Of a stretch of 56,357 bases of DNA, positions 29,595-46,880 are shown piece after piece. The first letter of the stretch is position 1; every line of letters begins with the position of its first letter. The stretch is taken from IMG/VR virus record IMGVR_UViG_3300049982_000330, positions 1 to 56,357 of that record; one strand, written 5' to 3'. The notes under the pieces were generated by a model. It was not told the DNA's origin. It did not search any database and was given only the letters and a program-made list of their open reading frames with translations. Origin of the DNA: a virus. Lineage: Duplodnaviria > Caudoviricetes. A program made the position numbers and the translations under genes.

Positions 29595-29616
29595 CACTCA
29601 GGAGAGGGAAAGATCG

Positions 29617-30343: not shown

Positions 30344-30358
30344 TTCGCCGCTTCGACC

Positions 30359-31195
30359 GTGTCACAGCCGACCGACCAGGCCCGCCAGGCGCTAGGTTCC
30401 CGCCTCCGTGAGATGCGCCAGGACGCGCGGCTCACGGGCCGGGAGCTCGCCGCGCGAGCCGGTTGGCGGCCCCCGAAGGTGTCCAAGCTGGAGCACGGGC
30501 AGCAGAACGCCAGCGAGGAGGACATCCGTACCTGGTGCCAGGTGTGCGGCGCGCGGGACCAGATCCCTGAGCTGATCGCCACGGTGCGCGCGATCGAAGC
30601 GCAGTACATGGAATGGCGACGACAGATGCGGGGAGGTCAACGCCGCGTCCAGAGCGTGCTCCGCGCCGAGGATCTCTCCACCCGCCTGTATCGGATCTTC
30701 GAGCCGTTCCACATCCCCGGCTTCCTCCAGACCCGCGATTACACCCGGGTCATCATGGCGCGCAGTGCCCATTTCTACGAGGCACCGAACGACCTGGAAG
30801 CCGCTGTAGCGGCCCGTCTGGGGCGTCAGACCATTCTTCGAATGGGTGACCGCCGGTTCCACATCGTCGTGGCCGAGCAGGCCCTGTACACCCAAGTGGG
30901 CGGCCCTGAGGTGATGCGCGGCCAGCTCGCCCACCTCCTGGACGAGATGGCCGCGCTGCCCCGGCTGCGTCTCGGCGTCGTTCCCCGCGCCGCCGACTAC
31001 GAGCTCGGCCCCCACGCGGGTTACTGGATCTTCGACGCGCGGCTGGTCATGACGGAGACGGTCACGGCCGTTCTGAACGTCACCCAGCCGCGAGAGGTCG
31101 CCATGTATGAGCGGCACTTCGACGGAATAGCGGGCCTCGCGGTGTACGGCCAGGCGGCCGCTGCCCGAATTACGGCAGCGAGCGAAGCTCTCTAA
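30359..31195 (+). CDS. XRE HTH plus DUF5753-type regulator
   Basis: LREMRQDARLTGRELA...VSKLEHG; IPGFLQT.DY; EQAL. Confidence 0.9.
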   Translation: MSQPTDQARQALGSRLREMRQDARLTGRELAARAGWRPPKVSKLEHGQQNASEEDIRTWCQVCGARDQIPELIATVRAIEAQYMEWRRQMRGGQRRVQSVLRAEDLSTRLYRIFEPFHIPGFLQTRDYTRVIMARSAHFYEAPNDLEAAVAARLGRQTILRMGDRRFHIVVAEQALYTQVGGPEVMRGQLAHLLDEMAALPRLRLGVVPRAADYELGPHAGYWIFDARLVMTETVTAVLNVTQPREVAMYERHFDGIAGLAVYGQAAAARITAASEAL

Positions 31196-31321
31196 GAAAT
31201 CTCAGGAAATCTCGTTGAGTGTGACGCGTGTGCCTGCCGACGATCGGGGGGACGAAAGGCGGGCCCGCCTGGCGCTGATGACGACCAGACGAGCCCTTGA
31301 TCGGACGCGGAGGTCCGACCC

Positions 31322-31531
31322 ATGGCACACCTTAAAGCCACCTCAGTGGACGCGCCCCCAGGATGGCGGGTGTTCCGAAGCGATAAGGGCCGCTTCTGGG
31401 CCACCCGCGAGGAGCCCTACCCCGAGCCCGAGCAAACCGCGTGGCGGACCGTGGACGCCGACGACTTGACCACGCTGTGCCGGACCATCGCCGAGCAGGA
31501 GAGCCGAGCCGAGCTGGGAGCGTCATCATGA
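31322..31531 (+). CDS. Small hypothetical protein
   Basis: GGAGG RBS; GWRVFRSDKGRFWATR...RTVDADD. Confidence 0.7.
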   Translation: MAHLKATSVDAPPGWRVFRSDKGRFWATREEPYPEPEQTAWRTVDADDLTTLCRTIAEQESRAELGASS

Positions 31532-31809
31532 GCGAGTCCGATCTCCACGTCGTGGACACCGACCAGATCAGGGAACAGAAGATCGCCGCCCTGGCCCAGA
31601 CCTACCCGGCGTGGCAGATCCGGTTCGTCGGATCCACCATCGCGGGCCCCATGGGCTGGTGGGCCATGCGGCACGCTCCGCTGACCGAGGCCCAGCGCGC
31701 GGCCGGCCTGGTGCCGTCCATCGCCCGCGGCGACATCGTGTCCCTGGTGATGGAACTCGACGTCCAGGATCAGATCGCCCATCGGACCGGCTACGCGGCC
31801 CGCCCATGA
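31528..31809 (+). CDS. Hypothetical protein
   Basis: ATGA coupling; YPAWQI...WWAMR. Confidence 0.65.
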   Translation: MSESDLHVVDTDQIREQKIAALAQTYPAWQIRFVGSTIAGPMGWWAMRHAPLTEAQRAAGLVPSIARGDIVSLVMELDVQDQIAHRTGYAARP

Positions 31810-32159
31810 GCAGGCCCGGCGGTCGTCCCGCTTCCCAGGTGGAACCCGCCGGGCCGCCGCCGTGCCCAGCGTGGTGCGACTTCCAGCACTCCGAGACTGA
31901 GCCGAGCTGGCGCTGGTACTGGCGCACACATCTCGGCATGGGTCGTACGGTGCCGCTGACGGCGATGCCTTCGGTGGCCAGCCACATCCCGATGCTGATG
32001 TACGACCTCATCCAGCAGCCCGACGGCGAGCCGATGATCCGGATGCGCCGCGACGGCCGTCCGCTGGTGCGGCTCACCTCCGGCGAGGCTCAGCGCCTCG
32101 CCATGGGCCTGGTCGCGCTCGTCGACCAGGCCCGCGCGGAGGCCGAGGGCAGGGCATGA
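31806..32159 (+). CDS. Second CPxWC-motif protein
   Basis: CPAWCDFQH...H; LTSGEAQRLA. Confidence 0.6.
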   Translation: MSRPGGRPASQVEPAGPPPCPAWCDFQHSETEPSWRWYWRTHLGMGRTVPLTAMPSVASHIPMLMYDLIQQPDGEPMIRMRRDGRPLVRLTSGEAQRLAMGLVALVDQARAEAEGRA

Positions 32160-32265
32160 GCGCGCATGCCAGCACCCCGGTTCAAGGGACCTGCTCGTCT
32201 CGTGGCGGCCGAACGCTCGGCCCGCATGGACGGCCCCGGGCGCGGCCGGGCCGCCATGGTCGCGG

Positions 32266-32574
32266 TCATGGCGGGGGCGGGCCGTGGTGCTCGGTGAAGA
32301 AGCGGAGCTCCTCCCACGCCTCCGGGTCCAGCGCGGCGGCCTCGTTGAGCACCTCAGCGAGCAGGCGGCGGGGCAGGCCCGACTCTTCCCACACCGCCCC
32401 GCACGAGCACCGTACGTAGCTCGGATCGTCGCCTGTCTCGTCGAGCAGCACCGACACGGTGAGGATGTGCCGCTCACCGCAGGCCGGACAGCCGATGGGG
32501 CCGTTCAGCCCGATGGCCCCGTTCACCAGGTGCAGGGTGACCTGGGTGATCTGGTGTTCTGCGTGCCCGCTCAC
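32266..32574 (-). CDS. Zinc-ribbon protein coupled to the satellite TMP
   Basis: CPACG...CSCG; GTGA overlap. Confidence 0.65.
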   Translation of the reverse strand: MSGHAEHQITQVTLHLVNGAIGLNGPIGCPACGERHILTVSVLLDETGDDPSYVRCSCGAVWEESGLPRRLLAEVLNEAAALDPEAWEELRFFTEHHGPPPP

Positions 32575-35500
32575 CTCGAACCTCGTTCGACTTGGCGCAG
32601 CCCCTCGCGGATCTGCATGAGGATCTCCCGCCCCGCCACGGTGTGGTTCTCGAAGTTGAGCTTGGCCCCGTTGATGTTGAGCACGAAGTCTCCCTGAATG
32701 GTCGGGCCGCCTCCACGGCCGCTACTTGACGAGGTGCTCACGCTGGCGCCGGACACACTCAACGTCGACCCGCCGGAGGTCGCGAGCGCCGGCCCGCCCC
32801 CGCCGGCGAACCCGAACGTCGGTTGTATGTCCATGGTGGCCATGTCGGCCATGCCGCGAACGGCGTCGAGCACGTGCCCGTACCCGCCTTGGATGCCGCT
32901 GGCCAGGCCCATGGGGATGAACTTGCCGATCGCGGCGAACACCTTGGACGGCGAGGCGATGCCGAGGATCTTCTTGGCCCAGTCGGGCAGCAGGGCGCCG
33001 AACAGGTTCCCGATCTGCTGCTTGAACCAGTTCCACATGCCGACGATGCCGTTCCACAGCCCCGTGATCATGTTGTGGCCAAGCGTGCCGAACATGCCGG
33101 CGAGGTCGCCGATCGCGCCGAGGATCAACCCGGGCAAGCCCTTGAGCCAGGTCACCAGGTCGTTGAACTTGCTGATGGCCCAGTCCTTGGCCTTGCCGAA
33201 CCACTCGGCGAACATGGCGGGCAGGCCCGAGATCCACTTGACGATCCCGTTGACCAGGTCGGGAATGATGCTGTGGCCGATCAACGTGTCGTACAACCAG
33301 GTGAACCAGCCGACAATGGTTTTGATCTTGTCGGCGATGTCGGCGGCGAATGTCGTGATGGCCGGGATGACCACCCCAAGGATCACGCCGACGAGCTTCA
33401 CGAACATGATTTGGACCGGCGCCCACAGCCTGATCAACTCGGCGACCATCGGCAGCATCGGCGTCATCGCGGTGATGAGCTGGACGGCGGCGCCTGCCAG
33501 CTGCACCACGACCGGCGCCAACACCTTGATCCACTCGGCCATGACCGGCAGCAGCGCCTTCACGAGCTCACCCACCACCGGCAGGATCGGCGTGAGCGCT
33601 GTGATCAGCGACAGGAACGCGCCGATCAAGCCAGGCAGCAAGGGGGCGAGCTCCTGCAGATACTTCACCAGCGCCAACCCGATGGTTTGCGCGAGCTCCG
33701 ACAGCACCGGCAGCAGCGGCACGACGGCCTGCACCAGCAGCGAGAGCCCGGTCACGAAGTTCGTCGCGATCAATCCGGCGATCTGCGCGATGATCGGGAT
33801 CAGCGGGGTGATAGCCGGGACCAGCCCGGACACCAGTTGGGTGATCAGTGCGGCGATCTGCGGGAGCAACGGTGCGAGCGCCGGAACCAGGGCGTTGATC
33901 AACGTCGCGGCCAAGCCGAAGATCAGCGGCACGATCGGCGACAACGCGACCACGGCCTGCGCAAACGCCCCGACGAGCAGCTGAATCGACGGCAGAATCG
34001 CGATGATCCCCGACGCCAGGCTCGTGGCGATCAGCAGCACCAGCTGGCCGAGCACCGGCAGCAGCGGGGCGAACGCGGGCACCAGCTGGCCGATGACCGT
34101 TGCCGCCAGCCCGATGATCAGCGGGATGATCGGGGCGAGGGCGGTCAGCATCGAGGCGAACCCGCCGACGAGGACCTGAATCGGGCCCAACATCGCCTGC
34201 ATCCCGGCGGCCAGGCTGGAGGCGATCAGCGTGGCCAGCTGGGAGATCACGGGCAGCAGCGGGGACAGGGACTGCAGGATCTCGCCGAAGACGCGGACCA
34301 TCAGCTGGATCGACGGCAGCATCGCCTGTACGCCTGCAGCAAGCGTGGTGGCGATCAAGGCCGCGAGCTGGCCGACCACCGGTAGCAGAGGCGCGATGGC
34401 TGCGAGGATCCCGCCGAGCGCTGCTCCGATCGGGGCGAGCGCCGGCGCGAGCGACGCGAAACCCGTAGCCACCGCGCCGATGAACGCCTGCAAGCCGGGC
34501 AGGATCGCTGCGATGGCGGGACCGATGGCGGCGATCAGGGGCTGCACGGACGCGAAAGCGGCGCCGATGGCCTGACCGAGGGGAAGCATCGCGGGCGCCA
34601 GGGCGGCGACCGCCTGGCCGATGCCGGCGAACACCGCGATCATCCCCGGGCCGATCGCCGCGACGGCGGGACCGAGCGCGGTGATCGCCGTGGCGAGCAC
34701 CGGGCCGACCATTTGAGCCAGCTGTGCGATGACGGGGGCGAGCTGGGCGATGACGCCCACAACGGCGGTGATCACCGGCAGGAACGATTTGGCGATGGCG
34801 CTCAGCGCGGTGAACACCGCGACCAGCGTTGACTGGCCCTGCGCTGATTTGAGGAACTGGTTCATCCCGTCGAGCAGCTGGCCGATGACGCCGAGTGCGC
34901 TCGCGCCAGAGGCCTGCATGGCGGTGAAGACCGACCGCACGATGCCGCCGACGTCGCCGACGATCGAGCCGAGCTGCTTGAAGACCAGCAGGGCGTTGTC
35001 CATCCATTGCAACGCCTGACCGCTCGCCGCGGCGTTGTACATGAACAGGCCGAACCGCTGCGCCACGGCGGCGATCCCGGGCGCCAGGGCGGCCAGCCAT
35101 CCGGCGCCGACCACACCGAGGTCTCTGAAGCCGTTGAGCAGGGGCGTCAGGGCGGGGATGAAGGCGGTCACCGCGTCATGCAGCGAGGTGAACACGCTGC
35201 GGATCGCCCAGATCGACTCCGATGACCGGGCGAATTCGAGGACCTTCAGCGCGGCCTGGCCGAACTGGCCGGCCACGCTCTCCACCCCGTCGGTCAGGGC
35301 GTTGAGGACGGGCAGCAGCGACCACATCTGGCCGACCAGCGGCCCGAACAGGGCATCCTGAGCGGCGAACTTGAGGCCCTGGAAAGCGGGCGCCATTTGG
35401 AAGAGCTCGTACGCCACCTGGCCGGCGGATGCGCCCAGCCCGGCGGCGGCCGTCATGAACTTGTCGAAATCGCCGGAGATGGCGGCCGCGAAAGCGTCCC

Positions 35501-35975
35501 CGACGCCGCTCAATGCGAGCTTCAGGGTGCCCAGCGCGGCGGCGCCGAGCAGTATCCCTCCCGGCAGAGCGGCGAGGATCCCCACAGCGGGCGCCAGCGC
35601 GGACACCAGGCCGATCGCACCTGAGCCGGCCGTGGCCATCGCAGCCGACAGGACGGCCATCTTCGCCGCGGCGGTGACCAGCGAGACGCCCACACTGACC
35701 AGCGAGCCCACGAAGCTCGCGACGTGGGAGGTTGCCTGGGAGACAGCCGTACTCAGGAGGGCGAACACGGCGCCGATGCCGCTGGAGCCACTGCCGAGAC
35801 GGAGGAAGCCCGCGTTCATCGAGCTCGAGATGCCGTCGAGGCTGCGGAAGCTGCGCTCGGTCCTGTCCGCCTGCCGCGCGACCTTCTCCAGGTCTCGGTT
35901 CACCTTGCCAATCCCGCGATCGGTGTCAGCCATCACCCCAAGGCGGATCATGAGGTTCTTGATTGAGTTCGCCAT
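32571..35975 (-). CDS. Tape measure protein (satellite copy, 1134 aa)
   Basis: True start ATG 35975 with AGAAAGGG RBS; collinear with the helper TMP. Confidence 0.93.
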   Translation of the reverse strand: MANSIKNLMIRLGVMADTDRGIGKVNRDLEKVARQADRTERSFRSLDGISSSMNAGFLRLGSGSSGIGAVFALLSTAVSQATSHVASFVGSLVSVGVSLVTAAAKMAVLSAAMATAGSGAIGLVSALAPAVGILAALPGGILLGAAALGTLKLALSGVGDAFAAAISGDFDKFMTAAAGLGASAGQVAYELFQMAPAFQGLKFAAQDALFGPLVGQMWSLLPVLNALTDGVESVAGQFGQAALKVLEFARSSESIWAIRSVFTSLHDAVTAFIPALTPLLNGFRDLGVVGAGWLAALAPGIAAVAQRFGLFMYNAAASGQALQWMDNALLVFKQLGSIVGDVGGIVRSVFTAMQASGASALGVIGQLLDGMNQFLKSAQGQSTLVAVFTALSAIAKSFLPVITAVVGVIAQLAPVIAQLAQMVGPVLATAITALGPAVAAIGPGMIAVFAGIGQAVAALAPAMLPLGQAIGAAFASVQPLIAAIGPAIAAILPGLQAFIGAVATGFASLAPALAPIGAALGGILAAIAPLLPVVGQLAALIATTLAAGVQAMLPSIQLMVRVFGEILQSLSPLLPVISQLATLIASSLAAGMQAMLGPIQVLVGGFASMLTALAPIIPLIIGLAATVIGQLVPAFAPLLPVLGQLVLLIATSLASGIIAILPSIQLLVGAFAQAVVALSPIVPLIFGLAATLINALVPALAPLLPQIAALITQLVSGLVPAITPLIPIIAQIAGLIATNFVTGLSLLVQAVVPLLPVLSELAQTIGLALVKYLQELAPLLPGLIGAFLSLITALTPILPVVGELVKALLPVMAEWIKVLAPVVVQLAGAAVQLITAMTPMLPMVAELIRLWAPVQIMFVKLVGVILGVVIPAITTFAADIADKIKTIVGWFTWLYDTLIGHSIIPDLVNGIVKWISGLPAMFAEWFGKAKDWAISKFNDLVTWLKGLPGLILGAIGDLAGMFGTLGHNMITGLWNGIVGMWNWFKQQIGNLFGALLPDWAKKILGIASPSKVFAAIGKFIPMGLASGIQGGYGHVLDAVRGMADMATMDIQPTFGFAGGGGPALATSGGSTLSVSGASVSTSSSSGRGGGPTIQGDFVLNINGAKLNFENHTVAGREILMQIREGLRQVERGSR
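33775..35642. repeat. About 1.9-kb direct repeat of 10074-11941 (offset 23,701)
   Basis: Identical shadow ORFs at constant offset; scattered substitutions mostly toward the high-coordinate end. Confidence 0.9.
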
Positions 35976-35977
35976 CG

Positions 35978-36223
35978 TCACCCTTTCTCTGGTTCTCGTC
36001 GGGCCACCTGCCGGCTCGCTCGGGCGCACTCCTGCGAGCACGTGCGCCGACGGCGGCCACCCGACCAGGTGGCCTCGAAGGTCTGGCCGCACACCGAGCA
36101 CGTCGCCTCGTGCCGCGCGCGACGGCACGGCCGGCAGACCCGCAACCCGGCGGGCAGCGAGGTGCTGGTCGACCAGAGCAGGACGCCGCACATCGCGCAC
36201 GGGACATCGGGCCGCCGAGCCAT
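35978..36223 (-). CDS. Multi-CxxC zinc-finger protein
   Basis: CAMC, CRPC, CSVC, CSQEC; GGAGG RBS before ATG 36223. Confidence 0.65.
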   Translation of the reverse strand: MARRPDVPCAMCGVLLWSTSTSLPAGLRVCRPCRRARHEATCSVCGQTFEATWSGGRRRRTCSQECARASRQVARREPEKG

Positions 36224-36301
36224 CCCGTCACCTCCCTGTCGCCGACTACGCCGGGTGACCAGCACGCGGTCACTCTGTGCCATCTCTTCGCCCTCACTCT
36301 G

Positions 36302-36436
36302 AGTGATGATCTTGAGGCCGATTACTCTGTGAAGTGGGGAGGGAAAAGGGCGCTAAGGGCGCGGGTCCCCCGTGATCGTTGATCTACGTCGCGAGGGTGC
36401 CCCCTCCGGCGCTATGACCTGCGAAAACGTCGCCGC
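36302..36436. repeat. Satellite copy of the putative cos/packaging site
   Basis: 132/135 identical to 46227-46361, same orientation, non-coding. Confidence 0.85.
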
Positions 36437-36964
36437 ATTGTCGCTGAGGGTCGATTGCATGCTGTTTATATGTTTGATCTTCGTCACTGAGCGTGTTTGG
36501 CGCAGTGTCACGTAACGTCATCACTTACGTCATCGCTTACGTGTTGATCTTCACGTTGTTTGCGTTGTGTGATCGGTGACTGGCTGGCCACCGCGCCATC
36601 CGCACCGCTCGGCCTCGGCTCGCGCGCATCAGCACGACGTGACGCTGTCGCGCCAGGTATGCACAGATGATCACGACTGCGAGACGCGTGAGCAGCGAGC
36701 GTCGAGCGGCGACTGTGGAAGCACGATCGCTGTGACGTACATCGTCGGCTGATGCATCGAGCTGCGTGTGATCGCTGTGTGCGAGCCATGGTGGCTGTGG
36801 TGGATAGGTGGCAGAACCGATGCTGATCAGCTCGGCGGGCGCGGTGTTCGAGCGTGACCGGCAGCGCCTGTGCCGCGTGCGGCTCGGCCGCCAGGAGGAC
36901 AGGGCCCACCGAGTGTGCCGGGCCCCCAAAGGTCGCCACCGCTCATTGGCGAATGGGCCCCGGG

Positions 36965-37495
36965 TCATGCCGTCTCCCGTGCGGCGGCCCGACGCTCGAG
37001 GTGGCACCGCTCCTCAATCCGGATCAGGGTCCGGCGTGCTGCCCCGAGGCGCTCGCCCGCCGCGCTCCGCGCCCTGTAGAGCCGACTCTCCGCAGCTTCC
37101 AGGACGTGACGCCGTGCCTGTGTGGGTTCCCTCGCGGGGTAGTCCGCCGGGGAGAGCATTGCGCCCCTCGGCCCCGTGTTCGCCCCCGCGGCCGTGGCCT
37201 CGATCAGCGCCCGTTGGTGCGCCATATCGGCCATGGTGTAGCTCGCGAGCGCCTCGTCGACGGCCTGCTGCGCCTCGGCTATCTGCGGCGCGAACCGGTC
37301 GATCACCTCCTGCTCGGCCTCGCCGATCGGGTCCGGCGCCGGACCGAGCAGCTTGCTCGGGTCGATGACCAACCCGTCGCGCCAGCAGAACCAGCCCGAG
37401 GGCATCGGGCGGCACCGCTTGGCCCCATATCCGACCGGCCTCCCGCAGCGATGGCACCGCTCGCTCGCGGCCTTGTTCTCGGCTGACAGCCTCAC
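36965..37495 (-). CDS. Hypothetical protein (Cys motif plus helical region)
   Basis: GTGA coupling to the upstream gene. Confidence 0.55.
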   Translation of the reverse strand: MRLSAENKAASERCHRCGRPVGYGAKRCRPMPSGWFCWRDGLVIDPSKLLGPAPDPIGEAEQEVIDRFAPQIAEAQQAVDEALASYTMADMAHQRALIEATAAGANTGPRGAMLSPADYPAREPTQARRHVLEAAESRLYRARSAAGERLGAARRTLIRIEERCHLERRAAARETA

Positions 37496-38496
37496 CTCGT
37501 CGCCTCCAGCCAGTAGGTGGCGCGCGCCATTTCCTCGTAGGCGCGCGCGGCATCCTCGTCGCCGCCGGCCATGTGCCTGACCTCGTGCCCGGTGATCGCG
37601 TCCAGCTCAGCCGCCTGGCACAGCGCGTCGGCGTTCAACCAGACTTCACCCGCCCAGGACACCGCCTTGCCGAGCAGCTGGTCACTCGGCCAGCCGAAGC
37701 CCGGCCGGGCGGACTCGCCGTACATCTCCAGGTAGTCGCGTTCGCCGTCGGTCTCGCTGCGGAACCAGCGCAGCCGAGGCCGCGGGGCGACCTTCAACCG
37801 CTCGCAGTGCTTGGTAAGCGCCGAGTCGACGATGACGCGTTTCCAGGCCGGAACCTCATCCGCCGCGAGTTCGACGTACCAGCTCGACACGTGCCGCTCC
37901 GCTTCCATCAGGACCGTGCGCGCGTGCTCGCGTTCCTCAAGATCCCGAAGGTTCCGCTTCACGATTTCGCAGGTGTTGACGACGGCGAGCCGCTCCATCC
38001 ACGCCCGGGTCTCGGCGTCGAGTTCGCCGGGCGGCCTGTTGTGCTTGACGGCGAGGGTCCGCGTGCCCACGCCAGCCCCGCGAAGGACTGGGCTGACCTC
38101 GAACACCTGTACCTCTTCGATGAAGCGCACCCGCTGGCCGGCGAACTCGCCGAACGACTCCTTGGTCACGTTGTAGCCGTAGCTCCACTCCTGGAGGCCG
38201 CCGAGCTGCTTGACGACGGTGAAGGTGTCGCGACCGGCCATGGTGTCGAGGAAGAACCGGCCTTCCAGGATCGCCTCATTGGCGGTCTGCCGGATGGTGC
38301 CCAGCCCGACCGGAAGCTCGCCGTCCCAGGTCCTGTGGCCGTAGCTGGAAATCACGACGGGCGCACCGTCGGCGAACGCTCCCGGCCGTGTCACATCCCG
38401 ATCGGAGTCGATCGCGTTGAACGTCGAGAAGATGGCCCGCACTTCGCCCTTGGACTCGTCCTTGATCTCCAGCAGGAGACTCTTGGTGTCCACCAT
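37492..38496 (-). CDS. Prohead protease paralog fused to an HEXXH domain
   Basis: First ~150 aa align with the helper protease; C-terminal ITGHEVRHMAG. Confidence 0.85.
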   Translation of the reverse strand: MVDTKSLLLEIKDESKGEVRAIFSTFNAIDSDRDVTRPGAFADGAPVVISSYGHRTWDGELPVGLGTIRQTANEAILEGRFFLDTMAGRDTFTVVKQLGGLQEWSYGYNVTKESFGEFAGQRVRFIEEVQVFEVSPVLRGAGVGTRTLAVKHNRPPGELDAETRAWMERLAVVNTCEIVKRNLRDLEEREHARTVLMEAERHVSSWYVELAADEVPAWKRVIVDSALTKHCERLKVAPRPRLRWFRSETDGERDYLEMYGESARPGFGWPSDQLLGKAVSWAGEVWLNADALCQAAELDAITGHEVRHMAGGDEDAARAYEEMARATYWLEATR

Positions 38497-38886
38497 TCAC
38501 CCCTCCCTTCTGCGCGCGGCCTCGGCCGCGACGGCGTCGCGCTCGAAGACCCACCGGCCCCGCTCCAGGCGTCCGCCGAGTTCGGCGGCGAGCTGGCGCA
38601 CGCGGCGCGCGGTGAGTCCGAGCAGCGCCGCGACCTGATCGGCGCTCAGAGGCGAGGATCGCCCGATTTCCGCGATCGGCGTTTCCGAGCTTCCGTTCGG
38701 CAGGTCAGGGCGTTTCCGCGCCCGTCCGGCTCGCTCCAGGTCACCGATCGCGGCCAGCAGCTCGGCACGCGCGTGCGGCGCCACCCGATCGAAGTAGCCC
38801 TTCCGCGCCAGGTCGCGAAGGGCGACGCCGGCGAGCTGCGCGATCTGCCCGGACAGGACCGCGGCGTCCTGGACGTAGGCCACCAA
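38497..38886 (-). CDS. HTH DNA-binding protein (excisionase/AlpA-like C-terminus)
   Basis: LSADQVAALLGLTARRVRQLA...GRWVF. Confidence 0.75.
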   Translation of the reverse strand: MVAYVQDAAVLSGQIAQLAGVALRDLARKGYFDRVAPHARAELLAAIGDLERAGRARKRPDLPNGSSETPIAEIGRSSPLSADQVAALLGLTARRVRQLAAELGGRLERGRWVFERDAVAAEAARRREG

Positions 38887-38887
38887 C

Positions 38888-39055
38888 TCACCTGCCGTCC
38901 GCGGCTCGGACGGGCCAGCGCTCGCTAAAACAAAGGACGTGCATCCAGTCGCCTCGGGCGCCGATGCGGCAGATCCGTTCCCCGATGTGGATCGCGCGAC
39001 GACACAGCGGACAACGGCTCTCCCTGCGCGCCTTCCGCGCGTGGGTGGCGATCAT
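38888..39055 (-). CDS. Small zinc-finger protein
   Basis: CPLC...IHIGERI...WMHVLC. Confidence 0.6.
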   Translation of the reverse strand: MIATHARKARRESRCPLCRRAIHIGERICRIGARGDWMHVLCFSERWPVRAADGR

Positions 39056-39888
39056 GCCGACCTCGCCATGGCCCGGCACTGCGGGCACTGCGGCAGACCG
39101 GTGTCCGGGCGCGCCTGGTCGCCGCCGGGTGTGCCGTGCTCGCACGGCGGCATCTGACCGATCGAGGCCAACCACACGCCGATGTCGGACCGGCCGCGCG
39201 CCGTACGTACCCGCACGAGCACCGGGGCCAGGTCCCCGTGATGGGCCATGGTGCGCAGGAGGCCGGGAAGCGATCGGACCTTGTTCTCAGCCTCGATCGT
39301 CTTGATGACGCTCTCTGCCTCCTCCTCGGTGGCGCCCGTGGCGGCCGTCACGATCCGTACGGCTCGCGCCCGCGCGGATGAGGAGTTCTTGAGGATCTCT
39401 GAGGAGATGGGTCCCCCGCTTGGGGGAGCTTCAGCACTTGAAGCTCTCCCGCTTGGGGGAGCTTCGGGACCAGGCGGGGGAGCTTCAGCACTCGAAGGTC
39501 TCCCGGATGGGGGAGCTTCAAGCTCTCCCGCTTGGGGGAGCTTCAGCGCCGGGCATTCGCCGGGCCTCGGAATGTAGAACTCCATGGCATGGCCGTTGCA
39601 GGCGAAGAGCATGCGCCCCCGGTCGTCAGTGACCGCCTGGCCCTGCTTGTCGCGGACCGGCACGCGGAGCTCGATGCCGTTCGCTCCGAGTTTGCCCAGC
39701 ACCTTGCCGAGCTGCTTGAGGTCTGCAAAGCCCGTCCGGCGGATCACCGTCGCGATCACCGCTCCGCCGTACGCGCGGCGAGTCCGCTCGTTGGCCTGGT
39801 CGGCGATCTCCAGGGCCACCAGCCGCTCGCCGGAGGACAGGCCAGGCGGCAGATGCTCGGCGAGCCAGCGCCGCAGCTCGTAACCCAT
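39052..39888 (-). CDS. Putative replication initiator
   Basis: LSSGERLVALEIADQAN wHTH-like N-terminus, internal iterons, C-terminal CEH...CPQC; start ATG 39888. Confidence 0.7.
   Translation of the reverse strand: MGYELRRWLAEHLPPGLSSGERLVALEIADQANERTRRAYGGAVIATVIRRTGFADLKQLGKVLGKLGANGIELRVPVRDKQGQAVTDDRGRMLFACNGHAMEFYIPRPGECPALKLPQAGELEAPPSGRPSSAEAPPPGPEAPPSGRASSAEAPPSGGPISSEILKNSSSARARAVRIVTAATGATEEEAESVIKTIEAENKVRSLPGLLRTMAHHGDLAPVLVRVRTARGRSDIGVWLASIGQMPPCEHGTPGGDQARPDTGLPQCPQCRAMARSA
39422..39544. repeat. Five GGGGGAGCTTC direct repeats (putative ori iterons)
   Basis: Copies at 39422, 39455, 39476, 39509 and 39534. Confidence 0.8.
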
Positions 39889-40169
39889 CAGGTCTCGCCG
39901 GCTTCCTGCTCTTCGCGCTCCCGGCGAAGCGCCTCGGCACTGATCTCCACCAGGGCCCGGCGCCGCGGCGAGGTGTTCATCTGGTCGCCGTGCATCGCGG
40001 GCGGCAGTCGGCCGTTCCACATATCCGGCGTACTGAAGAACAGCGGCGCCTGCGTGAGCCGGGCGCGCAGGTCGACGTACGCGAGCACCCGGGCCCGGCG
40101 CGCGGCGCACTCAGCTCGCTCATCGGCAGCGGCCTTCCTCAGCAGCGCTGCCCACTCCTGGCCCTTCAC
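39888..40169 (-). CDS. Hypothetical protein
   Basis: Coupled within the operon. Confidence 0.6.
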   Translation of the reverse strand: MKGQEWAALLRKAAADERAECAARRARVLAYVDLRARLTQAPLFFSTPDMWNGRLPPAMHGDQMNTSPRRRALVEISAEALRREREEQEAGET

Positions 40170-40414
40170 GGCGTCACGCCCGCGAGCGTGCCGCGCTGCC
40201 GGGCGATCTGACCCAGCTCCTCGAGTTGGGTCAAGCGGTCAAGGACGCGTTGCCGATCAGCTGGCCGCAACGACCGCAGCGCGGCGGCAGCAGACCGCCC
40301 ACAGGAGTTTGCCCGCGCTCTGTCGGACCGGCGCTGTACGCTGACACCATCGTCGTTAACGCGTTTCGAGGCCGCTCCTGCCCGGGGGCGGCCTTCGGCG
40401 TTCTCAGGCCACAT
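40166..40414 (-). CDS. Hypothetical protein
   Basis: GGAGG RBS; coupled to the next gene. Confidence 0.45.
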   Translation of the reverse strand: MWPENAEGRPRAGAASKRVNDDGVSVQRRSDRARANSCGRSAAAALRSLRPADRQRVLDRLTQLEELGQIARQRGTLAGVTP

Positions 40415-40646
40415 GGCGCACCTCCCCGCCCGCGTCCTGGTGGCCGAGGAGCACCTGAGCGAGGCGCACGCGTTGCTCGGGAGTCGGACTCGGTTCTGAA
40501 CCGATGAGCCGCTGGATGTAGTCCTCTGCGGCTAGGACCTTGAGGTCCCGGCGCTGGGTTTCAACCAGCTCAAGCCGATCCGGATGATGGCGCCTGGTGG
40601 CTGCGTGCTGTGCCCGTAAGCGGCGGCGCTCAGGAGAAAGAGACAT
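40404..40646 (-). CDS. Putative recombination directionality factor (phiRv1 Rv1584c-like)
   Basis: RRDLKVLAAEDYIQRLIGSEPSPTPEQRVRLAQVLL matches my recollection of the phiRv1 RDF pattern; downstream of the serine integrase. Confidence 0.65.
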   Translation of the reverse strand: MSLSPERRRLRAQHAATRRHHPDRLELVETQRRDLKVLAAEDYIQRLIGSEPSPTPEQRVRLAQVLLGHQDAGGEVRHVA

Positions 40647-40795
40647 GGATCCCCCAGAAGGCAAATGCCTTGTAAGGGGCTCCTCATACGTGGCCGTCTC
40701 GGGAGCCGGTTTCGCGTCGCCGGGTAGACCAGGCCCCACGTAGGCCCCGCGACACGCCCTGCCGTGCACAGGACAGTAGCAAGTCACCCAGGCGT

Positions 40796-41095
40796 TCACA
40801 TGCCATATCGGCTAGGAGGCTGGAGAGATTCAGTCGGACCGTAACTCTCGTCCAGATTGGAATGATCAACACGAGAAAGCCCCGGACCTTGGTCCAGGGC
40901 TTCGTCTCTGCACTGAGCACAATGGCACTGCGGCGGAGGATCGACGGGCAGGCCGGCGGCTATCTTCTGCCGTCGCCGTTCCAGCGCCACGGCGAGCATG
41001 CGCACCGTCCGATGCACCCTCGCCGTCATGCCAGCGGAGTTTTCCTCGGGATCGTGGGTCTCAGACATGGCTGGAAATATCCTTTCCTTGCGCAT
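40796..41095 (-). CDS. Hypothetical protein
   Basis: ORF with CHCAQC; weak support. Confidence 0.35.
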   Translation of the reverse strand: MRKERIFPAMSETHDPEENSAGMTARVHRTVRMLAVALERRRQKIAAGLPVDPPPQCHCAQCRDEALDQGPGLSRVDHSNLDESYGPTESLQPPSRYGM

Positions 41096-41098
41096 AGC

Positions 41099-41131
41099 AA
41101 AGAGCCGCGAGGGATATGCTCGCGGCTCTTT
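41099..41131 (-). terminator. Terminator downstream of the integrase
   Basis: 13-bp stem AAAGAGCCGCGAG/CTCGCGGCTCTTT. Confidence 0.75.
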
Positions 41132-41154
41132 CGCTGGGTTTAGGTGCAGCGCGC

Positions 41155-42849
41155 CTACCGGCGCCAGGTGATTGTCATTCGGTCAGTGTTCGCCGTTGGG
41201 CGACGATTCTTCCCCGGGCCGGGCTCGTACCCCAGTTCTTGGATGGCGGCTCTCACACGCTTCTCCAGTTCGGGTGACTTGGCCTTTCCCAGGATTACCA
41301 GACTGACGAACCCCTGACTGACACCAGCGTGCTCGGCAACGTCCTTCTGCGTCACGCGCTTGGTGGAGTGAAGGGACCGATTCTCGTAGTGGATCGTGAC
41401 CTTTGCGATCCAGTCATCGACGAATTTCCGTTGCTCGTCGAGATGCATCTCCGGCCACAAGGTCCGAAGCTCCTCGGGGTCGATGTCCCCGACCGGTGCA
41501 GGCAGCTCGGCGAGCTCGCGTTCGAACGTCTGAGCCTCCTTCATCAGCCCGTCATTCATGACGTTGAACTGCTCCGTGGTGAGCTTGCGCCCGTTCCACA
41601 TCTGAGCCAGCTCACCGCGCCGAAGGTCGAGGGCATCGAGTTTCTTCACCAGGTCTTCGCGGCGCGCGAAAAAACTGTCCTGTGCGAGCAGTCGGGCGGC
41701 GTTGTACTCCTTCAGCTTCTTGAAAAGGTGAACGGCTACGTGTCCTTCTGCCGCCCTGGCGTCGATGGTCGTCCGGCCACATCCGCCGGTCACCTTCGTG
41801 TCGCAGGCGTAGTAGGCGTAGTCGCCGCTGGGCCGCGCCTGCATTGGCTTGTCACAGACCCCGCAGAACGCCCGGTAACCGGTCAGCAGGTAGGCACGCC
41901 CCGACCTGCGTCGCGTCTTCTTCCGCGAACCGATGACGGCGCACAGCGCCCGCCATGTCACCTCGTCAAGGATGGGGGGCCAAGTCGCTTTACCCACGAT
42001 CTCGCCTCGGTGGACACGCAGCCCGGCAACGCACGGCGCGGTCAGGAAGTCGGCAACGCTCGTGGCAACGAACCGGCCGCCGTGCTTGCCTCGCAGGCCC
42101 CTGCTGTTAAGCCACGCGGCTACGTGCGCCAGGCCCCATCCGTTCAGGATGCGGTTGGCGCACTCCGTGATGATCTCGGCTTCCTCGGGCATGATCTCGG
42201 CGCTCTTGCGTCCCTGCTCATCGAGGACGGCCCGCCCGCCCGCAGGCCGCGGATTGTCGGCCTTCCACTGCCGCATCTCCTGGCCGCGGATCCTGGCCTG
42301 ATGGCGGCGCTCCTGCCACTCCTGGAGGCGGCTCTGCTCCTCCGGAGTCAGGATCACCTGCCGGTAGCCGTAGCCGAGACGGCCAGGCGGGCGCCCCTGT
42401 GAGGCAAGTTCGCTTTTTTTATCGAGGATGCGCTTCCGGAGCTGCTTGACCTCGTGCGCGCCGAGAACCGCATTGATCCCCGCGAAGACGCCGTCAACGT
42501 CGATGACGCCGTTCCGCTTGGTGTGAACCTCCGTGACACCAGCCTGCGCGAGGTCGGCCGCCAAGCTGAACCACTCGACCTCGCGGCGGGTGAGCCGGTT
42601 CTGCTCGACGGACCACAGGTGAGCAGACTCGCCGCGCCGGATCGCGTCCCGCATCTTCTCGAACTCCGGGCGAAAGACATCGTCCTTGGCCGCCGACAAG
42701 TCGTTGTCGGCGAAGACCTTGATCGGCATGTCGGGCCACCGGTCCCCGGCGTACTCGCGGCCCCACTTCTCCTGTGCCTGCACCCCCTCGGCGCGTCCTT
42801 GCTGGTCGGCGCTGATCCGGCAGTAGATGAAGACGTATCCCGTGCTCAT
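41155..42849 (-). CDS. Large serine recombinase (integrase) with LacI-type HTH insert
   Basis: YCRIS catalytic motif, DNDLSA, RPEF, NRLTR; zinc ribbon CGVC...YYAC...C; coiled coil. Confidence 0.95.
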   Translation of the reverse strand: MSTGYVFIYCRISADQQGRAEGVQAQEKWGREYAGDRWPDMPIKVFADNDLSAAKDDVFRPEFEKMRDAIRRGESAHLWSVEQNRLTRREVEWFSLAADLAQAGVTEVHTKRNGVIDVDGVFAGINAVLGAHEVKQLRKRILDKKSELASQGRPPGRLGYGYRQVILTPEEQSRLQEWQERRHQARIRGQEMRQWKADNPRPAGGRAVLDEQGRKSAEIMPEEAEIITECANRILNGWGLAHVAAWLNSRGLRGKHGGRFVATSVADFLTAPCVAGLRVHRGEIVGKATWPPILDEVTWRALCAVIGSRKKTRRRSGRAYLLTGYRAFCGVCDKPMQARPSGDYAYYACDTKVTGGCGRTTIDARAAEGHVAVHLFKKLKEYNAARLLAQDSFFARREDLVKKLDALDLRRGELAQMWNGRKLTTEQFNVMNDGLMKEAQTFERELAELPAPVGDIDPEELRTLWPEMHLDEQRKFVDDWIAKVTIHYENRSLHSTKRVTQKDVAEHAGVSQGFVSLVILGKAKSPELEKRVRAAIQELGYEPGPGKNRRPTANTDRMTITWRR

Positions 42850-43865
42850 AGTTCGGATTGTGGTTTAGGTGGGGTGCAACCGGCGAGCCCTTCGCTGAAG
42901 CCCACGATGACCGCCGGGACACCGGCCGCCGCCGCCATGCGCGTCTCGCCGGCGCCCTGGGTCGCCTTGAAGTCGAGCTGCTGCAGGTCCTTGCCGACGA
43001 CGTTCACATCCGCGCCGCCGCCCAGGTAGAGCGTCTTGTACGCGTTGTCGACGCCCCGGTGCTGCTCGTTCATGACGGCGATGAACCGCTTGAGCATGTC
43101 GGGCGTGACGCTGGCGTCCAGCGACACAACGACCTGCGGCGTCGCGCCGTTCTCGAAGAACGCGCCCTTGTGCTTGGTCGCCGCGAGGTCGGAGGAGATC
43201 TCCCGCAGGATCGGGGTGATCCAGCTCATGCCCCGCCAGTGGCACTCCGGGTCCGGGATGGGCGCGAAGTGCGCCACCTGCGACGGAAGGAGGAACCACT
43301 CCTTCTTCGTCATGGGCGGCGCGTAGAAGTAGCCGAGCACCTCGGCGTCCAGCGCGTGGCCGTACAGCTCCGGCTCGGACTTGGAGCCGCTGACGATCGT
43401 CACCCAGTCGGGCCGGAGCCGGCGCAGGCGGCCGGGCTGACCGGGCACCTTGGCGATGAAGGAGTTGCCCGCCAGGTCGACGTCTTGGATCTTCCTGGCC
43501 AGCAGGTCACCGGTGGTGCCGTTCGGCCACGGCCGCTCGAGCAAAGCGAGGTCCTTGTTGCCGAACAGGTCACCCGGGCGGCCGTTCTTGATCCGCCGGA
43601 ACTGGAAGCGGGCCTCGGAGAAGACGAGCATCCGGGTCGCCATCAGCGCGAAGATGGGGCCGTTGGACTTCGCGATGCCCTGGACGTAGCCCTCGAAGTC
43701 GTTCTCGATCTGCTCGCGCTCACCGTTCAGCGACGTCGAGCCGAGGAACGGGAAGCGCAGCCGATCGAGATCCCAGAAGTCTGGCTCCGACCAACCCTTC
43801 TGCGGATTCCGGGCAGGCTTACGCCCGCCACGGTGCGCCGCCGTGACCCGCTCGATCAGGCCCAT
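42846..43865 (-). pseudogene. Portal protein, 5' fragment (HK97-type)
   Basis: LLERPWPN, LAGN, LRPDWV, GMSW, FFENGATP and AAAAGVP motifs; follows terL. Confidence 0.92.
42850..42900. other. att junction at the portal 5' side (core CGG 42880-42882, minus strand)
   Basis: Portal-like sequence ends at ...GFSEGLAG, followed by 10 unrelated codons and a TGA overlapping the integrase ATG. Confidence 0.8.
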
Positions 43866-44340: not shown

Positions 44341-45906
44341 TCACACCCACACCGCGAACGGTTCGACGACTTCTTCCTCGATGTGGCCCCGGGTCGCCAA
44401 CCCCCAGGCGGCCGACGTGACCGCGACCAGCGCGCTGATGTCCACCGTCGCCGCCTTGGAGTCCCAGGCCTTGGCATCCCCGAGCGGCCGCGTCACCGCG
44501 CCGGCCAGAGCGACGTCCAGGGCGGGGTGAGGCAGGTACCGCAGCGTCGGCTCGCCCTGCTCCGGCATCACCGCGTCGACGAACTGGCCGAACGCGTGCC
44601 CGACTTCCCTTGCGGTGGGCTTCACGATGTCCAGCTTCACGACCTCGCCGGTCGCCGGATCCACGATCTTCACCGCTTCCAGATCGGCGATCAGCGACCC
44701 GGCGGGGCTCCCGGCATCCACCACCCACGCGCACGGATCCCACCGCTCCTGCAGCTGCTTCGCCCGAGCCGGAACCCACTTGGTCCCAGGCCGGTAGTCG
44801 ATGACCTCGATGTGCGTCAGCCCGTCCGCGCGCTGCCCCGCCGTACCGATCGCCGCCCAGCTGCGGTCAGGGGCGACGTGAATGGCGAACGCCACCCGGC
44901 CGACCGCCTCCGACCCCCGGTAGATCAGGGTGCCGTCGTCGTCCCGCACTTCCGGATCGGCCAGCGCCCGCCACTTGTCCTCGGGGATGACCTCCCACTT
45001 GGACTCCTCATCCACCGGCCAGTCGCCGACGCCGAGGCGCTCGCGAGCAAAACCCTTCGCGCCCATGGACGCACGCTCGCGTTCGACGTGCTCCAGGGAG
45101 ATCCGGATGCCGAGCGCCGGGTTCGCCTTCGCCACGCTCACCGGGTCTTCGGGGTTGTCGTGCTCGGTGCAGGTGATGACGTTCCGCTCGTCGCGCTCGC
45201 ACTGGTCGGTGTGCGGGTTGATGCTCCACTCCGCGTAGACCAGGCTCAGGTCACCGCCCTTGATGCCCCGCCGGCGCACCCGGGCCAGCTGCTCGCACGG
45301 GGCGATCGTCTTGTCGGCGGCCGACGACCCGTACCACAGCTGCGGATTCTCCCTCGCGCTCATCGTCGGCATCAGCGCGTCCACGCTGGTCGCAGGCAGG
45401 TTGAACGCCTCGTCCATGATGTTGACGTCGCCCGAGAAGCCACGGCCGGAGCCGGTCGAGCGGGCGACGAAACGGAGCCTCTGCCCCGACAGCAGCTCGA
45501 TGCCCTCATCGCCGTGCGAAGTGCGGATGCGCCGCACACGCTTGCGGAAGTCGTCATGGTTCTCGACCAGCGCCTGCATCCGCAGGAACATCTCCTGCGC
45601 CGTCTTGAACTCGTGCGCGCTGTAAAGGATCAGCTGCTCGCCGAACAGGAACAGACCGCCCAGGCACCTGGCCTCGAAGATCGACCCCTTGCCGTTCTGC
45701 CGGGAGACCACGATGCCGACCTCGAAGGCCGCCCATCGGCCGTCCTCGCGCTCGCCCAGGCCGTGGTGGAGGCAGTACTCCTGCCAGGGGTCCATCGTCA
45801 GGCCCGCCGAGGCCGCCAGTTCGACGACCTCCTGGCCGGCGGAGGAGACGTAGGGCGGGATCCACGAGATCCGCGGAGTCTGGACGCCGATGAGCGTCTC
45901 GGTCAT
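44341..45906 (-). CDS. terL: Terminase large subunit
   Basis: DPWQ, Walker A VSRQNGKG, GRGFSGD..IMDEA, ANPALG, RERLG; start ATG 45906. Confidence 0.95.
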   Translation of the reverse strand: MTETLIGVQTPRISWIPPYVSSAGQEVVELAASAGLTMDPWQEYCLHHGLGEREDGRWAAFEVGIVVSRQNGKGSIFEARCLGGLFLFGEQLILYSAHEFKTAQEMFLRMQALVENHDDFRKRVRRIRTSHGDEGIELLSGQRLRFVARSTGSGRGFSGDVNIMDEAFNLPATSVDALMPTMSARENPQLWYGSSAADKTIAPCEQLARVRRRGIKGGDLSLVYAEWSINPHTDQCERDERNVITCTEHDNPEDPVSVAKANPALGIRISLEHVERERASMGAKGFARERLGVGDWPVDEESKWEVIPEDKWRALADPEVRDDDGTLIYRGSEAVGRVAFAIHVAPDRSWAAIGTAGQRADGLTHIEVIDYRPGTKWVPARAKQLQERWDPCAWVVDAGSPAGSLIADLEAVKIVDPATGEVVKLDIVKPTAREVGHAFGQFVDAVMPEQGEPTLRYLPHPALDVALAGAVTRPLGDAKAWDSKAATVDISALVAVTSAAWGLATRGHIEEEVVEPFAVWV

Positions 45907-46184
45907 GCGCCCTTGCGCCGGTCCTCGCGGCGCTTGCGGAGCTCGTCGACCGTGTCCTTTTTCTTGTCCGCCGGCTTGGCCACCTTCGCCAGCTCGGCGA
46001 GCGTCGCGCGCAGCTGGGCGTGCAGCATGGCCGCCGCGGCCGGCCGTACGCCCGTTGCGCCGAGCCGTTCGGCCAGGTCCAGCGCGCTGGCGGCCATCGC
46101 CGACTCCGCAGGTATCGCCCACCGCTTCAGGTCGGCCCGGACGGCCGCCACCAGGCCCCGCTCAGCGTCGTCACGATCTGTCAC
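45903..46184 (-). CDS. terS: Terminase small subunit (putative)
   Basis: Helical, QLRATLAEL...DTVDELRKRR; coupled to terL. Confidence 0.75.
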   Translation of the reverse strand: MTDRDDAERGLVAAVRADLKRWAIPAESAMAASALDLAERLGATGVRPAAAAMLHAQLRATLAELAKVAKPADKKKDTVDELRKRREDRRKGA

Positions 46185-46226
46185 TCCGACCCCCTCACGC
46201 AGCGTGATTCCAGGATGGTCACTCCA

Positions 46227-46361
46227 AGTGATGATCTTGAGAGCGATTACTCTGTGAAGTGGGGAGAGAAAAGGGCGCTAAGGGCGCGGGTCCCCCGTGA
46301 TCGTTGATCTACGTCGCGAGGGTGCCCCCTCCGGCGCTATGACCTGCGAAAACGTCGCCGC
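46227..46361. promoter_or_regulatory. Putative helper cos/packaging site
   Basis: Non-coding, between HNH/AAA and terS (the usual cos position), and duplicated in the satellite. Confidence 0.7.
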
Positions 46362-46442
46362 GTGATCGCCGGGAGCCGATTACGCACCGTTCGCGTGCTG
46401 ATCTTCGTCACGATATGCAACGAGTGTGATCGTTGCATTCAG

Positions 46443-46880
46443 TCACCAAGCTCGTGACGATGTCTGTGCTGTTTGCGCAACGTGACTGAAGCTGGCATAC
46501 CAACGCTCGGCCATGGCCACCGTGGAGGCAGGGTAGGTCTCTGCTATCCGCCTCATCACGACGTCACGTCCAGGGTCCACAGTCACGATGCGAGCGTCGT
46601 GCTCGGCGTATCGTGCGAGCGCGTTGGGTGTGGGCATGGCGTGCACGATGTACACGTCGACGCAGTCAGCGTGCTGTAGGGCTTCCTGTGTGGCTGCTGT
46701 GCGGGCACGTGAGGCCACCTCGCGCAGCGCACGAGGGTAGCTGGTGGTGTCCGCGCCTGGTGGTGTGAGGGCCCGCGCGATGAGCTCCCAGTCCACCACG
46801 ATGTCCCCAGGCTTGGCGTGCTGCCGTACCCACGTGGACTTCCCCGAGGCAGGCGGCCCCGTCACCACGATGAGCCCCAT
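46443..46880 (-). CDS. P-loop (AAA_33-like) protein
   Basis: VTGPPASGKSTWV. Confidence 0.85.
   Translation of the reverse strand: MGLIVVTGPPASGKSTWVRQHAKPGDIVVDWELIARALTPPGADTTSYPRALREVASRARTAATQEALQHADCVDVYIVHAMPTPNALARYAEHDARIVTVDPGRDVVMRRIAETYPASTVAMAERWYASFSHVAQTAQTSSRAW

Follow-up and report, generated by a model that had tools for sequence, protein, structure and literature searches.

Does an integrase gene whose start codon overlaps the stop codon of an interrupted late phage gene depend on that phage gene for its expression, and could it in this way sense phage induction? The question is raised by a 56,357-nucleotide (nt) stretch of viral DNA (Duplodnaviria; Caudoviricetes) that spans positions 1 to 56,357 of IMG/VR virus record IMGVR_UViG_3300049982_000330 and is referred to here as the window; the record as a whole is classed as an IMG/VR provirus with a completeness rating of 84%. 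In the window, an element encoding a large serine integrase (gene int, protein Int) lies within the portal gene of an actinobacterial prophage, the outer prophage or helper, and the upstream portal fragment (portal') runs into int with a stop/start overlap. The initial annotation proposed that this overlap wires int into the helper late operon by translational coupling, as a built-in sensor of helper induction. From a comparison of the int start region with those of integrase relatives, we lean towards a different reading, namely an embedded serine-integrase element in which the overlap and the missing Shine-Dalgarno (SD) sequence would be inherited from the integrase family and passive read-through of helper transcripts would add integrase.

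The insertion within the portal gene is precise and covers 15,631 bp (42879..27249, counting one core). The portal protein of Rhodococcus phage Shagrat aligns through amino acids (aa) 9-327 at 43832..42873 and again, from aa 322 to 434, at 27259..26921. On the minus strand, portal' (42846..43865) encodes the first 329 portal residues followed by 10 element-encoded codons and a TGA, and matches the Pfam profile Phage_portal over positions 35-241 of 321; the downstream fragment, 'portal (26825..27248, minus strand), encodes the last 140 portal residues, matched by Shagrat aa 322-434, and is in frame with portal' after element removal. Excision in silico restores an open portal of 469 aa (473 aa in Shagrat), and the joined halves read GLAG|SSLNAGNY, the same as in the intact portals of two genome loci, L015 (77% identical portal) and L017. 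The locus therefore has a helper-embedded configuration, in which an element sits inside a prophage late gene that excision would restore. The only sequence common to the left and right attachment (att) sites is a CGG core, read directly from the sequence at 42880..42882 (attL, minus strand) and 27249..27251 (attR, minus strand), with the crossover inside it; this fits the short att sites of serine integrases, which have a 2-nt crossover and no long direct repeats. From the crossover to the int ATG, the P' arm measures 30 nt (42850..42879, minus strand) and holds a −10-like hexamer, CACAAT, at 42862-42857, and the P arm adjoining attR carries TTGACG at 27255-27250. The portal was uninterrupted at the insertion place in 8 of 8 genome relatives examined, with open frames of 452-520 aa (10 loci were returned, of which L021 and L023 were left out), and its halves were contiguous in 76 of 80 viral loci. 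The remaining four viral loci carried inteins (L089 and L090), a frame change at the place (L048) or a 70-nt gap (L087), and no recombinase insert was found in the portals of the 8 genome loci or the 80 viral loci. The two inteins, on viral contigs, lie in portal open reading frames (ORFs) of 801 and 912 aa, and that of L090 falls within ~6 residues of the insertion place of the serine-integrase element; the conserved portal motif SEGL...NY seems to attract selfish elements.

The recombinase itself (564 aa; 41155..42849, minus strand) has the features of a large serine recombinase: a catalytic Resolvase domain (PF00239, residues 6-153, E 1.1e-13) with the serine motif YCRIS at residues 9-13, Recombinase (PF07508, residues 221-305) and Zn_ribbon_recom (PF13408, residues 327-372) domains, and the short att sites just described. 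It also matches the integrase family phrog_95 (E 2.3e-68). At its C-terminus is an extra LacI-type helix-turn-helix (HTH) domain (PF00356, aa 502-543, window 41221-41346 on the minus strand, E 4.4e-8; phrog_11145). Similarity to most relatives ends at residue ~486-491, and in L120, L121 and L125 (Streptomyces) and L128 it reaches ~503-505; the HTH may be a DNA-binding domain that was added, or may have arisen by fusion to the 5′ end of a lacI-family gene.

At the portal'-int junction, the ORF list gives portal' as 43865..42846 (minus strand, 339 aa) and int as 42849..41155 (minus strand, 564 aa), with four shared bases. These form an ATGA at 42849-42846, in which the int ATG is 42849-42847 and the portal' TGA is 42848-42846, so that the stop of the upstream gene overlaps the start of the downstream gene, as is characteristic of translational coupling. 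The portal' C-terminus reads ...GFSEGLAG and then CTPPKPQSEL*, the 10 element-encoded codons belonging to no portal. Similarity to the Shagrat portal ends at window position 42873, and a tblastn search of portal' against phage records, which matched 69 records, showed similarity ending at residue 331 of 339 in all 15 of the matches listed. Because a stop lies in the int frame 5 codons before the ATG (an open frame of 569 aa vs the ORF of 564 aa) and the Resolvase domain begins at residue 6, this ATG is the only usable start. The 25 nt preceding it contain a single G and no SD core. The initial annotation was thus correct in its description of the site: the 10 extra codons with a TGA overlapping the int ATG, the int start without an SD, the co-orientation with the helper packaging genes (the large terminase gene terL, 46122..44341, is on the same minus strand) and a hairpin 3′ of int at 41099-41131 are all present.

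Is the overlap more than would be expected by chance? Overlaps of 1-4 nt are usual between genes of the window (for example, at 43865, 39888, 37492-37495 and 26825-26828). Since an NTGA start is built into the integrase family (see below), the overlap needs just the portal in the +1 frame (one in three) plus 10 stop-free codons in DNA of 68% G+C. The ATGA overlap does not clearly exceed chance and is roughly a one-in-three accident. In the other frames, the portal would have stopped at −18 (frame 0) or only 353 nt inside int (frame 2). A separate idea, that stops in three frames before int serve as a translation insulator, was rejected, as in the window one of the three frames remains open past the start. 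RNA folding across the junction was no better than that of shuffled sequences (z = 0.24), and no structure occluding the start was found.

Further evidence on coupling comes from integrase relatives. We compared 25 distinct relatives with a readable start, which are 30-65% identical to the window Int over the best segment. Duplicates were merged (L113 with L003, L123 with L004, L126 with L007, L127 with L005, L129 with L008 and L012 with L006), and L027-L029 (pseudogenes), L115 and L131 (no start parsed) and L132 (LacI part only) were left out. In the searches for relatives, matches were found in 2 of 401 genomes of an order-level sample (E <= 1e-30) and at five metagenome loci, three of which are the pseudogenes L027-L029, while none was found in the viral contig set and phage records gave only matches of <30% identity among the 25 matches listed. 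The three pseudogenes, on metagenome contigs, are near-identical decayed copies with in-frame stops and an Arg replacing the catalytic Ser. The int start is NTGA in 23 of the 25 relatives (the exceptions being L005 and L116), and an SD-like core is absent from positions −16 to −4 in 19 of them.

Are these traits confined to integrases that could be fed by an upstream gene? The gene adjoining int could be named by Pfam in 15 of the 25 relatives; L007, L013 and L119 gave no family, and L010, L025, L116, L118, L125, L128 and L130 are likewise outside the orientation count. In 12 of the 15, int lies beside the 3′ half of a target gene on the opposite strand, which is a Glyoxalase_6 gene in 11 (L004, L005, L008, L110, L112, L114, L117, L120, L121, L122 and L124) and an FAD oxidoreductase (DAO) gene in 1 (L003). 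In a further relative, L026, the neighbor is a complete, divergent luciferase-like gene. Only 2 of 15 are co-oriented with the target as in the window, each beside a 5′ half (DUF222 in L006 and Glyoxalase_6 in L111), and in these the stop of the target frame precedes the ATG by 11 nt (L006) and 25 nt (L111), without overlap. Where the neighbor is on the opposite strand (13 of 15), neither read-through nor coupling can feed int, yet the opposite-strand loci share the NTGA start and mostly lack an SD. Because the NTGA start and the missing SD are also seen at loci that rule out coupling, we conclude that they are family traits and not adaptations to the portal site. As a side observation, an integrase subfamily targets the Glyoxalase_6 gene near profile position 50, with int opposite in 11 cases and co-oriented in 1 (L111), L006 and L010 are in DUF222 genes, and L003 is in an FAD oxidoreductase gene; DUF222 is also the domain family of the target of phiRv1.

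The relatives also share features upstream of the start that offer an independent route of expression. In 22 of 25 relatives (not L008, L026 and L116), a hexamer of the form nAnnnT has its end 7-8 nt upstream of the start, compared with a background of 4.7% of positions in the same loci, and a TTG motif begins at −33 to −37 in 21 of 25. The family geometry is approximately TTGCCn, 17-18 nt, nAnnnT, 6-7 nt, ATG. Such an arrangement most likely represents a promoter with its transcript starting at, or just beside, the start codon, that is, a leaderless route, and leaderless mRNAs are common in Actinobacteria. In the window, the corresponding −10-like hexamer is the CACAAT of the P' arm, at −13 to −8 relative to the int start. 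Searches of the literature found no paper linking leaderless mRNA, serine integrase, attP and promoter, and nothing on the start site of Rv1586c, supplementary tables lying outside the search.

Several observations weigh against this reading, both for the family and for the window. The hexamers mostly lack the leading T of TANNNT; in four relatives the hexamer, GAGGAT, doubles as an SD core; L006 has a separate SD-like core beside its hexamer, and in L116 a plain GGAGG takes the place of the hexamer. This motif also lies within an integrase-binding arm, and its conservation may reflect binding and not a promoter, and the relatives are not independent, 11 of them sharing one target. The TTG motif of the window is out of register with the family, being at −30 with an 11-nt spacer, and the slot 18 nt upstream of CACAAT is filled, when the element is integrated, by the portal sequence TCGCCG, with 7 of 12 matches to consensus. 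In the excised form constructed in silico, this slot is filled by the TTGACG at 27255-27250, with an 18-nt spacer and 9 of 12 matches; the rule used for promoter scanning (9 of 12 matches with no fewer than 4 in each hexamer) would accept the excised form alone. In the integrated state, the element may thus have a poor promoter of its own, which would give more weight to helper read-through. Finally, a single copy of the element was found, and co-orientation is thus judged from one case.

Read-through from the helper is plausible on the arrangement of the locus. A promoter-like site (46258..46231), terL, portal' and int form a co-directional string, and a consensus scan found no promoter-like or terminator-like site on the minus strand from 46231 to 41155, so helper late transcripts should run into int. 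The proposal that helper late transcription yields integrase is accordingly retained in part: the co-directional arrangement with no intervening signals makes it plausible, but the promoter-like route shared by the window and 22 of 25 relatives means that it need not be the sole source. From these patterns, we consider the att-overlapping promoter of the element at least as likely a source of Int as read-through.

The initial annotation further assigned the hairpin 3′ of int a role in blocking read-through to the head and tail genes until excision. This hairpin (41099..41131, minus strand) is G+C-rich, has a 13-bp stem and a 7-nt loop, and begins 23 nt after the int stop; its 76-nt fold is more stable than shuffled sequences (z = −2.84), but it has no U-tract (its tail is GCUAUGCG) and was not flagged by a scan for T-tail terminators. 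A second hairpin (27336..27370, minus strand; 14-bp perfect stem, z = −3.01) lies after the element's final minus-strand ORF (27617..27381). Given a similar hairpin at the other end of the element, gene-end hairpins are ordinary here, and the one after int looks like an ordinary gene-end hairpin. Between it and the head genes there are ~13.8 kb of element, including the second hairpin and five plus-strand genes; with the portal split anyway, the hairpin has little to shield. We therefore do not support a function for it as a block to head and tail gene transcription.

A sensor of induction would also have to bring about excision. According to one report, a serine integrase alone integrates, and excision needs a directionality factor (PMC12286644). 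Since Int alone does not excise, making Int does not itself sense or execute anything; if the directionality factor were made by the helper, that protein would be the sensor and not the supply of Int. Combined with the occurrence of the overlap-forming start and the missing SD beside opposite-strand genes, and with the co-oriented relatives L006 and L111 that have no overlap, this leads us to set aside the claim of a purpose-built sensor of helper induction.

The reading that we prefer can be put as follows. A satellite-like element with a serine integrase is inserted precisely in the portal gene, in the same orientation as the packaging and head genes. Its att site ends ~30 nt before the int start, as in relatives, which makes int the first element gene behind the junction. 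int would be expressed from a weak promoter overlapping the att site, giving a leaderless or near-leaderless mRNA. Helper late transcripts would also run passively through terL, portal' and int, and ribosomes terminating on portal' could plausibly restart on the int ATG, so that read-through would supply extra integrase at a late stage of induction. Which way recombination runs, and therefore when excision and portal repair take place, would be decided by a directionality factor and not by integrase supply.

The gene content of the insert looks like that of a satellite, or at least of a dependent element, living inside a helper. No terminase, portal, capsid or further tail gene was recognized in the insert apart from protease and tape-measure homologues, and several of its small ORFs match no family; no AlpA hit was obtained among the element ORFs scanned, no primase was found either, and searches with Rfam and ARAGORN gave 0 matches and 0 tRNAs. 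int and the minus-strand element genes are co-oriented with terL and portal, and the five cargo genes are opposite. Behind int on the minus strand is a gene for a Rep-like HTH protein (39052..39888), whose Atlas neighbors are HTH_36 clusters (score 0.95), a lead only; inside this ORF are iteron-like direct repeats (39422-39544, minus strand; 3-4 copies of a 25-44-nt unit, GGGGGAGCTTC...), which encode a repeated PPSG...SSAEA peptide and are possibly origin iterons. A 129-aa protein (38497..38886, minus strand) has a weak match to the excisionase-type family HTH_17 (E 0.0026, under the Pfam cut-off) and is one candidate for a directionality factor or regulator. When 19 element ORFs were searched by tblastn against 12 integrase-relative loci, no candidate for a directionality factor stood out; the only matches were the C-terminal part of the 129-aa protein (42% identical, L007) and the HTH_31/DUF5753 regulator (L003, L009 and L011, which are one Amycolatopsis marina locus). 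The five plus-strand cargo genes (27863..31195) include DUF6907-like, DUF2637, DUF6879 and HTH_31+DUF5753 genes; the DUF6879 gene is followed by the HTH_31+DUF5753 regulator, and an HTH_31+DUF5753 gene is also found beside the integrase of L003.

Three parts of the element have counterparts in the helper. A second head-maturation protease homologue (37492..38496, minus strand) is 56% identical over 184 aa to the helper protease (25731..26828, minus strand). The element tape-measure gene (32571..36200, minus strand; 1209 aa) encodes a protein that is 77% identical to that of the helper (8843..12238, minus strand) and has a 76-aa N-terminal extension; ~600 central residues are identical and the ends have diverged, and the DNA is 93.5% identical over 2278 nt (33432-35702 vs 9731-12001), which suggests recent gene conversion or exchange. 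Finally, a non-coding repeat of 163-190 nt is present upstream of the helper packaging genes (copy A, 46219..46381, minus strand) and before the element tape-measure gene (copy B, 36294..36456, minus strand), the two copies being 96.5% identical over 143 nt (36294-36436 in copy B). Both copies carry the same promoter-like site, TTCACA-16-GATCAT, at 46258..46231 and 36333..36306, and these were the only two sigma-70-like sites found by a consensus scan of 36-47 kb. The repeat could be the helper late control region, a packaging site, or both, and its copy in the element could likewise be a packaging site or a control region; its RNA fold is weak (z = −1.94).

How well do other explanations account for the junction? 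Evolved translational coupling, in which Int depends on late translation of portal', the element senses induction and the hairpin insulates downstream genes, draws on the ATGA, the missing SD and the co-orientation, all of which are present, and on the lack of a predicted promoter or terminator between the late promoter-like site and int. It would also be favored if the out-of-register TTG makes the self-promoter of this element weak, and by the late excision, after replication of the composite, of the enterobacterial helper-embedded satellites termed HE-PICIs (PMC10111431). We nevertheless consider it quite improbable, because NTGA (23 of 25) and the lack of an SD (19 of 25) hold whatever the orientation of the target, 13 of 15 named neighbors are on the opposite strand, and the target stop does not overlap in either co-oriented relative (L006 and L111). 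Nor does RNA structure occlude the start, excision needs more than Int, and the hairpin without a U-tract is followed by the 13.8-kb element. A variant that we regard as possible, if on the whole unlikely, is that excision switches the promoter: the excised form would drive leaderless int from the P-arm −35 and CACAAT, so that a newly arrived element could supply the Int for its own integration, and the integrated form would rely mainly on late read-through and restart at the ATGA. The better consensus match of the excised form (9 of 12 vs 7 of 12 at attL) and the TTG at −30 here vs −33 to −37 in 21 of 25 relatives are consistent with such a switch, as is the hairpin at 27370-27336, which in the excised form would lie upstream of the int promoter region and would shield it from upstream transcription. 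However, the argument comes solely from matches to consensus, many actinobacterial promoters work in the absence of a −35 element, and a TTG-like motif is expected in any case since the P and B arms, bound by the same integrase, are alike; furthermore, no second copy of the element is available for comparison.

The remaining alternatives question whether the element functions, or exists, at all. It might be a dead remnant, a decayed second prophage that no longer excises and has inactivated the outer prophage, leaving a junction without function. Apart from the tape-measure gene, it has no recognizable terminase, portal, capsid or tail genes; no other copy was found when a 25-nt stretch of the P' arm was searched against the viral and genome contig sets (0 matches); and the odd C-terminal LacI HTH on the integrase is possibly a fusion scar. 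Against decay, int has an intact ORF encoding all three domains and the YCRIS motif, both junctions are exact and excision would restore the open 469-aa portal, the element ORFs are open with high third-position G+C, the ~600 tape-measure residues identical to those of the helper point to recent exchange, and the repeat before the element tape-measure gene is 96.5% identical to the helper copy; we therefore give a dead remnant only a small share of the probability. An assembly artefact, by which two related phages were wrongly joined through shared repeats, we find scarcely credible. The two long similar stretches that might have caused it, the tape-measure genes (93.5%, 2278 nt) and the 143-163-nt repeat, do exist, but the junctions are in unique sequence, the portal halves fit to the codon, and a serine integrase is at the junction where its relatives have att sites. 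As judged from the sequence, this is a clean site-specific insertion rather than an assembly artefact.

Satellites embedded in helper genes have precedents, and their comparison with the element clarifies what is new here. The HE-PICIs of Enterobacteriaceae carry tyrosine integrases and insert in helper late genes (Tommasini, Mageeney and Williams 2023; PMC10111431). That article describes a target gene that is not repaired by the att site, which the authors term regulated gene integrity serving the satellite; an observed order of composite excision, its replication and then satellite excision; and the hypothesis that helper late transcription continues into the satellite integrase (PMC10111431). 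The element resembles HE-PICIs in that the late gene is not restored by the att site and is functional only after excision, in having a segment in common with the helper (~258 bp, 90% identical, near cos in HE-PICIs; here 143-163 nt at 93-96%), and in that the satellite captures helper late genes, here as protease and tape-measure homologues. In contrast, HE-PICIs form one tyrosine-integrase clade (11capE) with AlpA and the PICI gene order, and are known from 492 instances in enterobacterial hosts, whereas the element has a large serine integrase and is a single instance in an actinobacterium. Because its recombinase is a serine integrase and no AlpA hit was obtained, the element does not belong to the HE-PICI family proper. 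It is instead a serine-integrase, actinobacterial counterpart of helper-embedded satellites, and the idea of read-through into int has already been published for HE-PICIs.

Other satellites and serine-recombinase elements share single aspects of this arrangement. The EPIPs of Mycolicibacterium aichiense are ~11-kb satellites that depend on a prophage helper, whose tails are shorter than theirs (Qian et al., preprint December 2025; PMC12822802). They too are small actinobacterial satellites, and besides a serine integrase and an HTH protein they encode a tape-measure protein, which is unusual for satellites. They differ in having been isolated as particles and in reportedly carrying small terminase, adaptor, stopper, scaffold and capsid genes as well; integration inside the helper is not mentioned in the part of the EPIP text that was covered, and the likeness is by description only. 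PLE of Vibrio cholerae, a satellite with a large serine integrase whose excision is triggered by its helper, phage ICP1, is a true sensor of helper infection, with the helper protein PexA as directionality factor; this island is in the chromosome and not inside the helper. Serine-recombinase elements that split host genes, which are rebuilt by timed excision, include skin of Bacillus, SPbeta, and phiRv1 in REP13E12. These interrupt host genes and are timed by host regulators or their own, whereas here the target belongs to another mobile element. A literature search by title and abstract found no serine-integrase or actinobacterial helper-embedded satellite.

Satellites embedded in helper late genes have so far been described for one enterobacterial tyrosine-integrase clade, and here the same lifestyle would have been built independently. 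The element thus offers a compact system for asking how an embedded parasite times its excision so that the helper portal is repaired, and whether integrase supply or a directionality factor sets that timing. It also carries a caution, in that a stop/start overlap and a missing SD at such a junction need comparison with integrase relatives before they are read as wiring. If real, the promoter-like geometry over the att site would be relevant to users of such integrases as tools. Were the excision-dependent promoter switch to prove true, with the integrated element making Int solely when the late operon is transcribed and portal' is translated, the helper packaging program would trigger both portal repair and satellite release. 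The element would then represent the first helper sensor wired in cis around a serine integrase, in an actinobacterial satellite with a tape-measure gene and a copy of the helper late control region.

The outer prophage minus the insert measures 40.7 kb, and three elements of 15.6 kb would amount to 46.9 kb, or about one helper genome (arithmetic only). Its terL (44341..46122, minus strand) matches phrog_9 (E 2.5e-74) and is 40% identical to the Shagrat terminase; the true start may be near 45910, behind a 93-aa ORF (46184..45903). Upstream of repeat copy A, a hairpin lies 3′ of an ORF annotated as AAA_33 / 'small terminase' phrog_4581 (46880..46443). In addition to the protease and tape-measure genes, family or profile matches identify a major head protein (24461..25723, minus strand), and the prophage also carries an adaptor, a major tail protein and a chaperone. 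The helper tail region contains two diverged direct duplications, 14793-15005/16880-17092 and 15333-15419/17429-17515, which are 75-78% identical.

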